Positions 4,045-20,117 of a DNA stretch of 20,117 nt are shown here, piece by piece. Position 1 is the first letter of the stretch. Every line of letters starts with the position of its first letter. This stretch comes from a virus. Its lineage: Duplodnaviria > Heunggongvirae > Uroviricota > Caudoviricetes. The notes under the pieces are model-generated. The model was not told the DNA's origin. It made no database searches and saw only the letters and a program-made list of their open reading frames with translations. Location of the stretch: IMG/VR virus record IMGVR_UViG_2778261163_000008, positions 1-20,117 of that record; one strand, written 5' to 3'. A program made the translations under genes and the position numbers.

Positions 4045-4644
4045 TCAGAATTTATAACCGACACCCACGATGAAACCGTCAGTGCGCCAGTCACCACTGC
4101 CGGAGCCTTCATAAGCAATATCAATGGCCACGGATTCGGTCGGGTTAAACTGCACGCCAGCCCCCCACGCCAGAGACGTGTTGCTGTGGCGACCGTCATC
4201 ACTTCCGGTCAGCACATCGTGCGTTTTCCCCTTGTTGTCAGTTACGCGGAGATAATCCCCGAAGAAAGTCGACACACGGCTGTAAGCCACACCCGCCATC
4301 GCATACACGCTGAACCATTCATTCACGCGCACAGACGGCCCCGCCATTACGCTGAACCAGCGGTTACGCACGGAATCTTCATGCCAGCGGGTATCGCTGT
4401 AATGCGTTTTTTGCTCATCTTCAGCGTTGGCATAACTGAATGACGTAATCAGCCCCAGCGTGTCCGTAAACTCATAACGGTATTTCACGTTAATCCCGTT
4501 CAGATTATCGCTGCCGGGAGCGTTCGTACGGGCATGAAGATACCCTGCGCTCAGTGTGGCCTGCTGCTCAGACGCCCATGCAGGCGCACCGGATACGGCC
4601 AGACAGATGGCTGTGGACAAAATGGCTGCACAAACTTTACGCAT
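4045..4644 (-). CDS. lom: Lom-family outer membrane protein (Ail/Lom/PagC/Rck beta-barrel family), 199 aa with signal peptide
   Basis: N-terminal signal-peptide-like [24 protein letters not shown]; C-terminus ...[25 protein letters not shown] matches lambda Lom by recall; position between J and stf as in lambda; AGAGG Shine-Dalgarno-like motif upstream of the ATG. Confidence 0.9.
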
Positions 4645-8899: not shown

Positions 8900-9540
8900 T
8901 TGTCGGTATACCTCTCTCGTTTGCTCAGTTGTCCAGGAATATGGTGCAGCAGCTCGCCGTCGCCGCAGTAAATAGCGGCATGATTCGGCACCGATGAACC
9001 AAAACAGCACAGCAGCACATCGCCCGGCTGCGCCGCTGACAACGGCACCTGATACAGCCCCGTTGCCTCCATATTATCCAGATAGAGATTCTGACCGTGA
9101 CGCCACCAGTCATCCTCACGATGAAAATCCGGCATCTCAATTCCCGCCAGATGGTAAGCATCCCGGAACAGCGTGTAACAGTCCGTCACCCCGTGCTCAA
9201 AGCGCCGCCCGGTAAGATGCGGCACACAGCGGAACTTGTGAATCGCCCCCCGGCAGACCAGCCACCACGGCAAATCACTCTGCACCTGCAGCCGCCGGTC
9301 AGCCTCACTCAGCCAGGGCAGAGCACCGGGGTGACTGTGGACCAGCGCCACAATCTCACCCTGCATTTCTGCCCGCAGCCAGTCCTCCGGAGCCATCCGG
9401 AAATACGCCTCCGGCTCACCGGAGATATTCACGCAGGGAAAATATCTTTCCCCTTCCGGCGTTCTCACCACGAAGCCGCACGACTCCGCTGGCGCACATC
9501 GCCGGGCGTGCGCCAGAATCGCTGATTCTGTCTCTGTCAT
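8797..9540 (-). CDS. K: Tail assembly protein K (JAB/MPN-like plus NlpC/P60-like domains), 247 aa
   Basis: Translation MTETESAILAHARRCAPAESCGFVV...EIVALVHSHPG (JAB/MPN-type motif) followed by GVTDCYTLFRDAYHLAGIEMPDF...NHAAIYCGDGELLHHIP (NlpC/P60-like); lambda-K-like by recall. The 3' end overlaps the start of I out of frame. Confidence 0.85.
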   Translation of the reverse strand: MTETESAILAHARRCAPAESCGFVVRTPEGERYFPCVNISGEPEAYFRMAPEDWLRAEMQGEIVALVHSHPGALPWLSEADRRLQVQSDLPWWLVCRGAIHKFRCVPHLTGRRFEHGVTDCYTLFRDAYHLAGIEMPDFHREDDWWRHGQNLYLDNMEATGLYQVPLSAAQPGDVLLCCFGSSVPNHAAIYCGDGELLHHIPGQLSKRERYTDKWQRRTHSLWHHRAWHASAFTGICNDLAAASTFV

Positions 9541-9545
9541 GGGAT

Positions 9546-10244
9546 TTACTGCGAAAGTTTGTTAATGGAAAGGAAGCCGCCAAAGTTGCCGACGTTATTG
9601 CGAAACTTACAGCCACTCAGGCATTTGCTGCATTTATCCTTCGTGATATCGGACGTCGGCTGATCATATTCATCCGCGACCGCCGGACCGTGATAACCGC
9701 ACTCATCACCGCGATAGGTCCAGGTGCAGGTATTAGCCAGCATGATGCGGCCCGGAAAAACAGCGCCGTCCGTTTCCGTCGGCGTGGACAGTACAAAGGA
9801 GGCACTGACCGCGCTCAGTTCGCTGCACTGCTCAATGCGCCAGCGGCTGATTACCTCCTGCTCCGGATCGGCGTCACTGTTTCCGTTGACGAAGTTCACC
9901 GCATCCAGAAAACGGGCGTAAACCTTACGCCTGACCACCGTTCCGCCGACCAGACTCTGCAGGTCTTCCGCCATCCCGGTGACCATGCCGTGCAGATTAG
10001 AGACTTTCAGCGTTGGCCTTGCACTGGCTCCTTTGCCGTTCATCTCAAATCCACTCCCCTGAATGGGATAGGCCTGATACTGCCGCCCCTGCCAGGTGAC
10101 TGGTTCACCTTTTTCGTTCTGCTCATTACAGAAGAAATAACGATCTCCGCCGACCTCTGTCAGATCAATTTCCCAGAGCACGATCAGCGCGGATTGCTCC
10201 GTTTTAGTGCACTCATTGAGTGTTTCCTGCTGTATATCCTGCAT
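9546..10244 (-). CDS. L: Tail tip assembly protein L, 232 aa
   Basis: Translation MQDIQQETLNECTKTEQSALIVLWEIDLTEVGGDRYFFCNEQNEKGEPVTWQGRQYQAYPIQGSGFE... with conserved cysteines near the C-terminus, lambda-L-like by recall. Its ATG overlaps the stop of M (TGATG). Confidence 0.9.
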   Translation of the reverse strand: MQDIQQETLNECTKTEQSALIVLWEIDLTEVGGDRYFFCNEQNEKGEPVTWQGRQYQAYPIQGSGFEMNGKGASARPTLKVSNLHGMVTGMAEDLQSLVGGTVVRRKVYARFLDAVNFVNGNSDADPEQEVISRWRIEQCSELSAVSASFVLSTPTETDGAVFPGRIMLANTCTWTYRGDECGYHGPAVADEYDQPTSDITKDKCSKCLSGCKFRNNVGNFGGFLSINKLSQ

Positions 10245-18063: not shown

Positions 18064-18663
18064 TTATGCATTAAGAAGGGTCAAAAGACGCTCACGCGCC
18101 ATTCGTTCGTTAACAGCTTTCTTCAGCGCACCACTCGCCCGCGCTTCCTGCCAGGCTTTCATTGAGCGGACACCAGAGTCTGCGTCCTGATAGGCCGGAT
18201 ATGTCACCGGGCTGACGTCATACAGACGAGAAATGCGCGTGATTTCCCGGATAACAATCCCCTCGTCGTCTTCATACCAGCTCTCTCCGTCACGGGCGAC
18301 ACGAAACGCGAACGAGGACTGATTAATGTCACCACGCAACATTGGAGACAGCACCAGGTCACAAATAGTCGGAGTATCCGGTGCAACAATGTCATAACGT
18401 AAACCGCGTTCATCCACCGACAATGACAACGTGCCGGCAGAACTTCGTCCGAGAATGAAATTAGGATCATGATTAAACAAGCCACGTACATCATCATTCA
18501 GTACATCATCAAAAGCCCCCGGCTTGATGATTTCACGAAATCCCCACAGAGGTTCTGAACGACTGTTAAATACCGAGCCATACCCCAGAATGTGGGTCGG
18601 GGCATTATCATATTGTTCCGCCCGCACCTCCCCGCTGTAACAGCGCGTTTCACGGTCATTCAT
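18064..18663 (-). CDS. Prohead maturation protease, HK97 family (S78/U35-like), 199 aa
   Basis: Position between portal and major capsid; size and sequence pattern typical of HK97-type prohead proteases; ATG lies within the last codons of the portal gene. Confidence 0.8.
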   Translation of the reverse strand: MNDRETRCYSGEVRAEQYDNAPTHILGYGSVFNSRSEPLWGFREIIKPGAFDDVLNDDVRGLFNHDPNFILGRSSAGTLSLSVDERGLRYDIVAPDTPTICDLVLSPMLRGDINQSSFAFRVARDGESWYEDDEGIVIREITRISRLYDVSPVTYPAYQDADSGVRSMKAWQEARASGALKKAVNERMARERLLTLLNA

Positions 18664-19882
18664 CGTTCTTTTCCTCTTTGCCTTTCGTATCTTTAAAGTT
18701 ATTCAACGGATTTGCTGCATTTACGCTGACCAGCATTTCATCCAGACCGTCAACCGGGTTCATATCCTCAAATGCCCTGGCTTCATTCCGACTCATCCAG
18801 CCATCTGTAATGGCAAAGTGATAGAACTGCGCACGCTCCTGTGGGGTCCCACGGAGCAACCCCGTGAGGTTGAAACGAACGTAATACCCGGCAGCCCGTT
18901 CTGTACGGGTAAACAGGCGACGGTTAAGCTCCTGCTCCCAGTTCGCAACCCAGGGCATCATCGTGTAGCGAACAAACTGAATCGCCTGCTGCGTAATATT
19001 CGAAAATGTGGCTTTTTCCAGGTCATTAATCATGTGCGCCGGGACATTAAAAATCCCGGCAATCATCGACCGGTTCAGCTTGGTCATATCAATGATCTGA
19101 GCATCCACCGGAGAAACTGTCAGAGCGCGGTAATCCAGTTGCGCAGGCAGCAACATGGTTTTATTTTCCTGGCTGCGAAGCGCTGTCACCGCCCGCTGCC
19201 ACATATTTTTAAGCCTGCCCCAGCTTTGTTCGTTCAGTTCATTTTTCACAGAAATAATACCGGCAGGACGGGCATTACCGTTAAAAAAGGCGCTGGTATA
19301 CTGCTGGCCACTCATTCCCATACCAATGGTTTCAGCATGCTGCATGATCGGGCTCAGTCCCATTTTCTGATTGTTTCCCAGCGCCCTGATATGGATCATG
19401 TCGTCCGGACTTACCGCAAATGCACCCTCTTCGTTATACACCCCGTAAGTATGACGCCCACCGGTGTTAAGTAACGTGGTTTCCCATGGCATACAGCATT
19501 CAAGGCTGGTAACCTCTCCACGACGATTACGTTTTACCCACGTATAACCATTGCCCCACCCCAGCACATGACGCTGCTTCAGTTCCCGCCACTTATAGCT
19601 GGTCTGCCAGGCATTCGGTTCATCATGAACGAGCCAGAACAACGGATGATCGCGTGCAGGCTGAACATGCTCATTCGTTTTTCGCATCACATGCAGGGGC
19701 ATCTGAGCCACACTGGATGAAATAACATAAATACAGGCATAGACAGCAGCCAGCTTCATGGATGTTTCCGGACTGACATACACATCCCGGGCAAAAATAT
19801 TATCCGTCTCAGCGGCCTCTCCGGTTACCGGAACCGAGGGATTTTCCAGAGGCTCACTGCGAAACAGAGCATCAAGAAGCAT
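18656..19882 (-). CDS. Portal protein, HK97 family, 408 aa
   Basis: About 400 aa protein upstream of protease and capsid; sequence pattern typical of HK97-family portals; GAGGAG motif 5 nt upstream of the ATG. Confidence 0.85.
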   Translation of the reverse strand: MLLDALFRSEPLENPSVPVTGEAAETDNIFARDVYVSPETSMKLAAVYACIYVISSSVAQMPLHVMRKTNEHVQPARDHPLFWLVHDEPNAWQTSYKWRELKQRHVLGWGNGYTWVKRNRRGEVTSLECCMPWETTLLNTGGRHTYGVYNEEGAFAVSPDDMIHIRALGNNQKMGLSPIMQHAETIGMGMSGQQYTSAFFNGNARPAGIISVKNELNEQSWGRLKNMWQRAVTALRSQENKTMLLPAQLDYRALTVSPVDAQIIDMTKLNRSMIAGIFNVPAHMINDLEKATFSNITQQAIQFVRYTMMPWVANWEQELNRRLFTRTERAAGYYVRFNLTGLLRGTPQERAQFYHFAITDGWMSRNEARAFEDMNPVDGLDEMLVSVNAANPLNNFKDTKGKEEKNDE

Positions 19883-20117
19883 GTTTTCTCCTCATGGACA
19901 CCACCAGTGCATAAAGCAGCAACAAACAGCCCGACAGCATCAGAGACGCTGGCAGACCTGCATACAGATAAACGCCAGCAGTGAGCAAACCGAAACCGAT
20001 CAGCCCGGTCATATCAGTAATACCGGAAAGCGCAATGTGTTTTAGTAGCGAAATGCGGCGCGGGTCGGCGAATAATTTTTGTTGGAGCTTAAGGGTGAGA
20101 AGGATTTCGGCCTGCAT
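19872..20117 (-). CDS. Chimeric ORF: ModE N-terminal 32 residues fused in frame to a 49-residue hydrophobic tail (81 aa); probably a junction artefact rather than a native gene
   Basis: First 32 residues MQAEILLTLKLQQKLFADPRRISLLKHIALSG match the N-terminus of E. coli ModE as I recall it; the rest (ITDMTGLIGFGLLTAGVYLYAGLPASLMLSGCLLLLYALVVSMRRKHAS) is unrelated and strongly hydrophobic. The stop overlaps the portal start. Confidence 0.45.
   Translation of the reverse strand: MQAEILLTLKLQQKLFADPRRISLLKHIALSGITDMTGLIGFGLLTAGVYLYAGLPASLMLSGCLLLLYALVVSMRRKHAS
20022..20117 (-). pseudogene. modE: 5' fragment (codons 1-32) of molybdate-responsive transcriptional regulator gene modE, truncated at a junction with prophage DNA
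   Basis: Recalled identity of the encoded 32 aa to the ModE N-terminus; similarity ends abruptly after ...HIALSG at about position 20021. Confidence 0.5.

Follow-up and report, generated by a model that had tools for sequence, protein, structure and literature searches.

The hydrophobic reading frame that lies ahead of the portal gene in the 20,117-nucleotide stretch of viral DNA analysed here (the window) represents the 3' portion of a genuine small gene of phage origin, a member of a catalogued, uncharacterised family whose intact representatives are found between the terminase large subunit gene, terL, and the portal gene. The explanation that best accounts for the whole arrangement, and that we hold to be very likely as a whole, is that the tail of this genuine gene survives beside the scar of an insertion, probably that of an ISEcp1 transposition unit. 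The copy in the window is most likely an ordinary insertion scar, a remnant of a gene whose 5' end has been replaced by a fragment of the chromosomal gene modE.

As initially delineated, the frame occupies 46 codons on the minus strand (19872..20012), consisting of an ATG at 20012-20010, 45 further codons and a TGA at 19874-19872, and encodes MTGLIGFGLLTAGVYLYAGLPASLMLSGCLLLLYALVVSMRRKHAS. These features, together with the overlap of the frame with the ribosome-binding site and ATG of the portal gene, are as the preliminary description gave them. The portal gene (18656..19882, minus strand; 408 aa; PF04860) starts with an ATG at 19882, its first 11 nt overlapping the end of the small gene, and its Shine-Dalgarno sequence, GAGGAG (19888..19893, minus strand), is embedded in small-gene codons 47-49 with a 5-nt spacer to the portal ATG. 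Inspection of the window sequence found no Shine-Dalgarno sequence ahead of ATG 20012. No stop codon separates the small frame from the modE ATG at 20117 when the minus strand is read, and the result is a chimeric 81-codon open reading frame (19872..20117, minus strand) in which ModE(1-32), encoded by modE codons 1-32 (20022..20117, minus strand), runs in frame into residues 5-53 of the phage protein. Both the missing Shine-Dalgarno sequence and the frame relationship with ModE(1-32) had been pointed out before, and the sequence bears them out. Phage-derived sequence begins at 20021 or 20022, three codons 5' of ATG 20012, the ambiguity arising because the T at 20022 is common to modE and phage. 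Thus 49 codons, rather than the 46 counted previously, are phage-derived, and the gene remnant comprises native codons 5-53 and the stop codon (19872..20021, minus strand), identical to residues 5-53 of WP_000811487.1 of PHROG 7105. The 46-codon frame corresponds to native codons 8-53, with the ATG at 20012 specifying an internal, non-conserved Met.

The composite nature of the region is evident from a megablast comparison of positions 19600-20117 of the window with 5,426 complete E. coli genomes, which splits the segment into two unrelated parts. The first 95-96 nt are modE and are present in nearly every genome; the phage part, from 20022 downward, occurs at 100% DNA identity in many E. coli prophages, and at >=80% query coverage in about 630 of the 5,426 genomes. 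The modE-phage junction itself was found in none of the 5,426. An intact relative, NZ_CP025913 (locus L001), carries a 53-codon coding sequence between genes annotated "terminase large subunit" and "phage portal protein"; this native gene (L001:5990-6151), annotated "hypothetical protein" (WP_000811487.1), encodes VKQLITDMTGLIGFGLLTAGVYLYAGLPASLMLSGCLLLLYALVVSMRRKHAS. Its GTG start overlaps the stop codon of terL (ctGTGAaa), and it ends in a stop codon 11 nt into the portal gene. Measured against this native gene, the window copy consists of codons 5-53, with codons 1-4 swapped in frame for modE codons 1-32.

This comparison also bears on two earlier suggestions, namely that the frame might be the remnant of a phage gene C-terminus, and that the segment might prove to be the 3' end of a terminase gene in another frame. 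The first holds in so far as the frame is a remnant of a small phage gene, but that gene is a separate one of 53 codons and not the C-terminus of a large gene or of the terminase. In intact relatives terL has already ended 11 nt before the breakpoint is reached, which excludes a terminase C-terminus, and the other sense frames are closed in all 26 of the sequence variants considered below. The C-terminus of the terminase large subunit was rejected on these two grounds, and the reading in another frame fails on the same evidence.

Database searching of the peptide led to PHROG 7105 and WP_000811487.1. The native protein matches the PHROG 7105 profile over positions 1-52 (E = 9.4e-20) and the 81-aa product of the window matches it over positions 5-52 (E = 1.5e-16), with PHROG 502 ("membrane protein") and PHROG 4810 giving weaker matches to the native protein. 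Carriers of the family include HK97-like lambdoid E. coli prophages and phages of the vB_EcoS-xxxR series, and the gene is found in nine deposited E. coli phage records, Evi and PhiR49_2 among them, where it is annotated as hypothetical. Over residues 5-53 the window copy is 100% identical to WP_000811487.1, and the downstream portal gene, the 11-nt overlap and the embedded portal Shine-Dalgarno sequence are all alike, but the first four codons, the terL-coupled start and the adjacent terL are missing. Because terL and the 5' end have been replaced by modE', the window copy is a 5'-truncated member of PHROG 7105. Searches of Pfam and NCBIfam produced no significant match for the native protein and several homologs, the scans of Pfam, NCBIfam and PADLOC returning only weak compositional matches to generic membrane-anchor models. 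None of the five family members scanned matched a PADLOC defence model, and a role as a defence component was rejected on that basis.

Evidence that the frame is coding comes from 80 IMG/VR loci gathered via the portal protein, which fall into two groups with portal proteins that are 98-100% or 88% identical. The small frame is present in every one of the 80 loci, always 53 codons long; the copies comprise 26 distinct DNA sequences and 11 distinct proteins. Between the groups, dN/dS is 0.17-0.39 in the annotated frame of the small gene and 0.6-3.1 in its two shifted frames, as compared to 0.02-0.13 in the flanking terL and portal segments, and variable columns are distributed over codon positions 1, 2 and 3 as 21, 10 and 30. 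Among the six frames, that of the small gene is the only one open in 26 of 26 variants; an antisense ORF of 95 aa (19758-20045, plus strand) is open in only 12 of the 26 and was rejected. These comparisons indicate that the small gene is real and under moderate constraint, with purifying selection in this frame only. The alternative, that the frame is open by chance in non-coding DNA or comes from the 3' end of terL in a different reading frame, could draw on the shortness and low complexity of the protein and on its lack of a Pfam family. Against this, terL stops upstream of the breakpoint, the one frame open in all variants has a dN/dS below 0.4 where the others are near or above 1, and homologs at 45% identity retain length, motif and position. 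We give the alternative next to no chance, and the terL end, the dN/dS values and the open-frame evidence can be taken to have refuted it already. The same values dispose of the earlier proposal that the frame is merely the out-of-context reading of a non-coding region.

A word-indexed homolog search detected nothing beyond near-identical E. coli/Shigella proteins and chimeric variants. Relatives at 45-60% identity came to light when 1.84 billion representatives were searched exhaustively with phmmer; the homologs recovered by phmmer are 52-65 aa long and 45-62% identical, and their sources include a Morganella morganii cluster and metagenomes. The homologs at 45-50% identity, from Morganella and metagenomes, retain the gene position. 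In the six distant loci (L084-L089, with five homologs) the gene is directly 3' of terL in all six, and an ATGA overlap with the terL stop is found in five, the exception being L087, where the TGA is followed directly by the ATG. The portal gene comes next after the small gene wherever the sequence reaches far enough, after a gap of 9 nt in L087 and at a distance of 127 nt in L086, the protease of which is of the S49 and not the S78 type. Among the close loci, the small gene overlaps the terL stop as GTGA or ATGA in 80 of 80, the divergent group starting with ATG (ATGA), and GAGGGG, the equivalent of the portal Shine-Dalgarno sequence, is conserved in the clade with the 88% identical portal. 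Since L086 and L087 are without portal overlap, the conserved linkage is that with terL, and the overlap with the portal gene is specific to a clade.

The 4-nt GTGA/ATGA overlap, taken with the fact that no well-spaced Shine-Dalgarno sequence is present, implies that the small gene is translated by termination-reinitiation from TerL. In intact phages, ribosomes that finish TerL would reinitiate at the overlapping GTG or ATG to produce the 53-aa hairpin, which would enter the inner membrane late in infection. The preliminary description had further proposed that translation through the small frame couples portal expression to upstream translation. This proposal survives in part. Coupling is possible through the 11-nt overlap, but the strong Shine-Dalgarno sequence of the portal gene itself and the absence of masking RNA structure make it optional, and the distant loci L086 and L087, which have no portal overlap, indicate that it is not required. 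RNA folding at the portal start revealed no structure beyond that of shuffled controls (z = 0.14), and on account of this value we no longer suppose that the small frame must be translated for the portal ribosome-binding site to become accessible.

In the window copy the coupling to terL is lost, and the question arises of what, if anything, is made from the remnant. A free-standing 46-aa peptide started at ATG 20012 would be compatible with the presence of that ATG and with the open frame that follows it, but no Shine-Dalgarno sequence precedes 20012, the native start is seven codons upstream and coupled to terL, and a start served by the modE ribosome-binding site is available here, upstream and in frame. 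In relatives, moreover, the position of native codon 8, which is the ATG at 20012 in the window, is occupied by A, V, L or I, and Met8 is no conserved start. Synthesis of such a peptide is very improbable.

The native 53-aa protein has a GRAVY of 0.99, and its hydropathy profile shows two hydrophobic stretches. The first (19953..20009, minus strand; native residues about 9-27) is a Gly/Ala/Thr-rich helix with invariant G13, G20, Y22, L23 and G26, and the second (19893..19946, minus strand; native residues about 30-47) carries invariant L31 and G35 and is followed by a basic tail, RRKH. AlphaFold2, applied to the family alignment, predicts two helices, at native residues 6-25 and 27-52, with a mean pLDDT of 87.9, and these helices agree with the hydropathy profile. 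The original impression of a hydrophobic, two-helix-like peptide is thereby upheld, and the suggestion of a small membrane protein gains support. In the family alignment M1, D7, G10, L11 and L38 are near-invariant, and G13, G20, Y22, L23, G26, L31 and G35 are all kept in the window copy. Taken together, profile and model show the product to be a predicted two-helix membrane hairpin of ~6 kDa, in which Gly and Tyr residues follow a conserved pattern and the C-terminal tail is basic. From the charges of K2 and of R48, R49 and K50, the N- and C-termini would both seem to lie on the cytoplasmic side.

Class II holins and pinholins, such as S21, are two-helix phage membrane proteins, and the small protein is like them in being a small two-helix hairpin with a Gly/Ala/Thr-rich first helix and a basic C-terminus. 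It differs from them in that its gene sits in, and is coupled to, a packaging and head operon. The holin families in Pfam and PHROGs gave no match for the small protein, and a separate lysis cassette, consisting of a class II holin, lysozyme and Rz1, is found upstream of HNH and terS in L001. A holin was rejected both by sequence, there being no Pfam or PHROG match, and by location outside the lysis cassette.

For the intact family, position, coupling and fold suggest a putative late inner-membrane accessory protein of the packaging-head module formed by HNH, TerS (P27-type), TerL and portal. Strict synteny and coupling down to 45% identity argue for a role in packaging or head assembly rather than a moron-type host function. 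A literature search on small membrane proteins between terminase and portal returned nothing relevant. Phage T4 gp40 is a membrane protein that aids portal and prohead initiation at the inner membrane, and both it and the small protein are small membrane proteins encoded among head-assembly genes, but the two have no sequence relationship and differ in size, and a portal-assembly role in the present case would be argued from gene position only. It is a speculative notion, with rather little probability attached to it, that PHROG 7105, and perhaps also PHROGs 502 and 4810, might represent a TerL-coupled membrane hairpin acting as a morphogenetic factor that places portal and prohead initiation, or the packaging motor, at the membrane, as a functional analogue of T4 gp40. 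Such a reading would draw on gene position and on the 4-nt overlap with terL, which is kept to 45% identity across differing portal and protease types.

The modE sequence to which the small gene is joined forms the final 96 nt of a 242-bp fragment, acrZ'-modE', and is 100% identical to E. coli modE. It specifies an incomplete ModE, codons 1-32 only, rather than the full-length molybdate-responsive regulator, in which DNA-binding and molybdate-binding domains are combined. The fragment, whose boundaries were checked against an intact acrZ/modE locus, comprises 18 nt from acrZ, 128 bp of intergenic DNA between acrZ and modE, and 96 nt from modE, and on the source contig (L002:128-369) it is 100% identical to acrZ/modE of many E. 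coli genomes. That contig, NTPF01000009.1 (GCA_002464245.1, 182,736 bp), of which the window is a part, extends only 273 nt upstream of the modE ATG, and L002:1-127, just outside the window and 146 bp ahead of that ATG, corresponds to the right end of ISEcp1. Within it, the right inverted repeat (L002:114-127, ACGTGGAATTTAGG) is followed directly by the 242-bp fragment, ISEcp1 interrupting acrZ after codon 6. The identical 127 nt occur in NZ_CP023820 between the ISEcp1 transposase gene and blaCTX-M-14, where they end 42 bp before blaCTX-M-14.

At its other end the prophage terminates in a tail-fibre assembly gene, beyond which lies chromosome that aligns with K-12 at 98.2%, starting within serU and continuing through yodB, zinT, msrQP, hiuH, hprRS and hchA. 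The K-12 positions of modE (0.794 Mb) and serU (2.043 Mb) are 1.25 Mb apart; with the prophage at serU, modE is therefore neither the flank of the prophage nor a boundary with the chromosome. The modE breakpoint might be taken for a prophage/chromosome junction, an interpretation that is not supported, as the modE piece is part of a 242-bp fragment beside ISEcp1. A simple deletion between modE and the prophage was likewise rejected, given the 1.25 Mb between these loci in K-12.

ISEcp1 mobilises neighbouring DNA through substitute right ends of weak similarity, leaving behind 5-bp repeats that are AT-rich (PMC6061673). This documented behaviour makes insertion of an ISEcp1 transposition unit into the small gene the most economical reading of the junction, and one that we infer to be probable. 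ISEcp1 would first have inserted into acrZ, and the element and 242 bp of adjacent DNA would then have transposed as a unit by way of a weak substitute right end in modE, ATTGCGCTTTCCGG. The unit would have landed in the AT-rich CTTATTACT of the small phage gene, between CTT and ATTAC, in the prophage at serU, and the in-frame join to modE would be an accident with a one-in-three chance. The candidate substitute end agrees with the true end at 6 of 14 positions, a similarity that is not distinguishable from chance; by comparison, the published IRR1 (GCGCAGTTTTTCGA) agrees with the true ISEcp1 right end at 7 of 14 (PMC6061673). Known ISEcp1 units that carry blaCTX-M or blaCMY-2 (PMC6061673) share with the present arrangement a right inverted repeat and outward promoter directly followed by foreign DNA, which breaks off abruptly where an AT-rich target begins. 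A match as weak as the 6/14 of the present candidate right end is typical of the published cases, but is not significant by itself. The present cargo differs in being a 242-bp, non-resistance chromosomal fragment, acrZ'-modE', and the unit is seen from its right end only.

The unit model predicts a left junction of the form terL-GTGAAACAGCTTATTA(C)-CCTAGATTCTACGT, the last of these being the ISEcp1 left end, with TATTA or ATTAC on both sides of the insertion. The source contig stops 127 nt into ISEcp1, leaving the left junction on another contig of GCA_002464245.1. Exact-match scans of metagenomes and species-representative genomes gave no hit to the predicted left junction, and an exact-match metagenome scan gave none to the right junction, but the source isolate is absent from these collections and the scans are uninformative. 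A literature search on ISEcp1 with acrZ or modE found nothing relevant. Any unit model also predicts a second copy of the 242-bp fragment, and the contig passes straight through the fragment. This straight run fits a unique fragment slightly better, although paired reads could also resolve a 242-bp repeat.

That the contig crosses the 242 bp as if they were single-copy would sit well with illegitimate recombination independent of ISEcp1, which would then lie in acrZ, 242 bp away, by coincidence; an example is a large, roughly terminus-symmetric inversion with one end in modE (0.79 Mb) and the other in the serU prophage (2.04 Mb), or a translocation. The sharing of only 1 nt at the junction and the fact that the left junction was not observed point the same way. 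Recombination of this kind, however, needs two independent rare events within 242 bp. The capacity of ISEcp1 to take neighbouring DNA along to other locations is on record (PMC6061673), and the target, TATTA/ATTAC, is AT-rich, as ISEcp1 prefers. We consider such recombination a rather unlikely origin. A different possibility is that the junction has no counterpart in a real molecule and was created when the short reads of a draft genome were assembled into a chimera. The draft status of the assembly, the end of the contig 127 nt into a repeat near the junction, and the absence of the junction from the 5,426 complete genomes and from metagenomes would all be in keeping with an artefact of this sort. 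Chimeras normally arise at shared repeats, however, where here 1 nt is common to the two parts, and the exact 81-aa product is on record for a 182,736-bp NCBI contig and for a different one of 10-20 kb, and for no others. An artefact is highly improbable.

The small gene has been disrupted on other occasions. Seven of the 12 near-identical protein clusters are chimeric variants of it, and cluster P0011, from another genome, has an IS3-family insertion in the small gene with terL retained. These variants provide a precedent for insertions at this spot.

Under the favoured reading of an inserted ISEcp1 unit, the remnant would be translated, if at all, only as the fusion ModE(1-32)::(5-53), from the intact modE ribosome-binding site. 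Transcripts of the fusion would come from the modE promoter region and from the outward promoter of ISEcp1. The latter (TTGAAA-18-TACAAT) is present and directed at the fusion ORF, and no terminator-like site was found between the two. As the invariant residues of the family are all kept, the ModE fusion could still enter the membrane. It would nevertheless appear to be a by-product, with no likely role and no reason to think that it has been selected.

With these results the apparent oddity of the window is removed, because the hydrophobic frame is a catalogued and annotated phage gene and not a new, fusion-dependent peptide. The family to which it belongs is strongly syntenic and coupled to terL, and yet it has never been characterised. 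The window also appears to record the movement by ISEcp1, an element known for blaCTX-M, of 242 bp of ordinary chromosome into the head operon of a prophage. If true, this would show how ISEcp1 units scatter promoter-bearing fragments and, in doing so, mimic a boundary between chromosome and prophage.

Beyond window position 1, where the contig continues (L090:10583-19741), the tail end of the prophage adjoins part of the serU tRNA gene together with the yodB-zinT-msrQP-hiuH-hprRS-hchA region; this arrangement places the integration site of the prophage at serU. The serU-side flank is 98.2% identical to K-12 positions 2,035,229-2,043,529, and in K-12 a distance of 1.25 Mb separates serU from modE.

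At the other end, just past window position 20117, contig NTPF01000009.1 carries the right end of ISEcp1 (L002:1-127, in the sequence upstream of the modE start), and the modE ATG lies 146 bp downstream of it. The outward promoter of the element, TTGAAA-18-TACAAT, faces the fusion ORF, in which the start of ModE is joined in frame to a small phage protein, and beyond it the genes for portal, protease and capsid. The contig stops inside ISEcp1 after 127 nt of the element, a break that probably reflects the assembler's k-mer overlap at a repeat.

Among the morphogenesis genes, the tail assembly chaperone G-like ORF (14154-14540) ends in a TAG stop that is directly preceded by an A8G run, AAAAAAAAG (14157-14165, minus strand), and is followed in a different frame by a T-like ORF (13852-14142). 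Judged from the sequence, this run is probably a programmed -1 frameshift site giving a G-T fusion. Mechanical ORF listing gives the head-tail connector 165 aa from a TTG start (16438-16935, minus strand), with a frame that extends into the capsid gene at the latter's 3' end. This long version is probably an artefact of the listing method, since the Pfam match is confined to residues 65-161 and gene-calling programs place the start internally, for a product of 105 aa. In the comparison prophage L001 (NZ_CP025913.1), the capsid-to-connector region is split by the IS21-like element ISEc62 (9222-11188), and the serum-survival gene iss (2437-2730) has the lysis cassette on one side and HNH and terS on the other. 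The window itself encodes a full-length Ail/Lom-family outer-membrane protein (4045-4644, minus strand; PF06316, E = 2e-124) between the J-like tip gene and a gene for a 1134-aa side tail fibre, a classic lambdoid moron position.

A 95-aa antisense ORF over the small gene (19758-20045, plus strand) stays open in no more than 12 of the 26 sequence variants and was therefore rejected as a conserved ORF. Other genomes of E. coli and Shigella repeatedly carry the small gene itself in disrupted form (protein clusters P0005-P0012; L092:3501-4900), and chimeric read-throughs make up 7 of its 12 near-identical protein clusters. The P0011 chimera arose by insertion of an IS3-family element between the small gene and the portal gene, with terL left intact. 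The small gene may be a hot spot for insertions, or a site at which inactivation of the prophage is tolerated or selected for.
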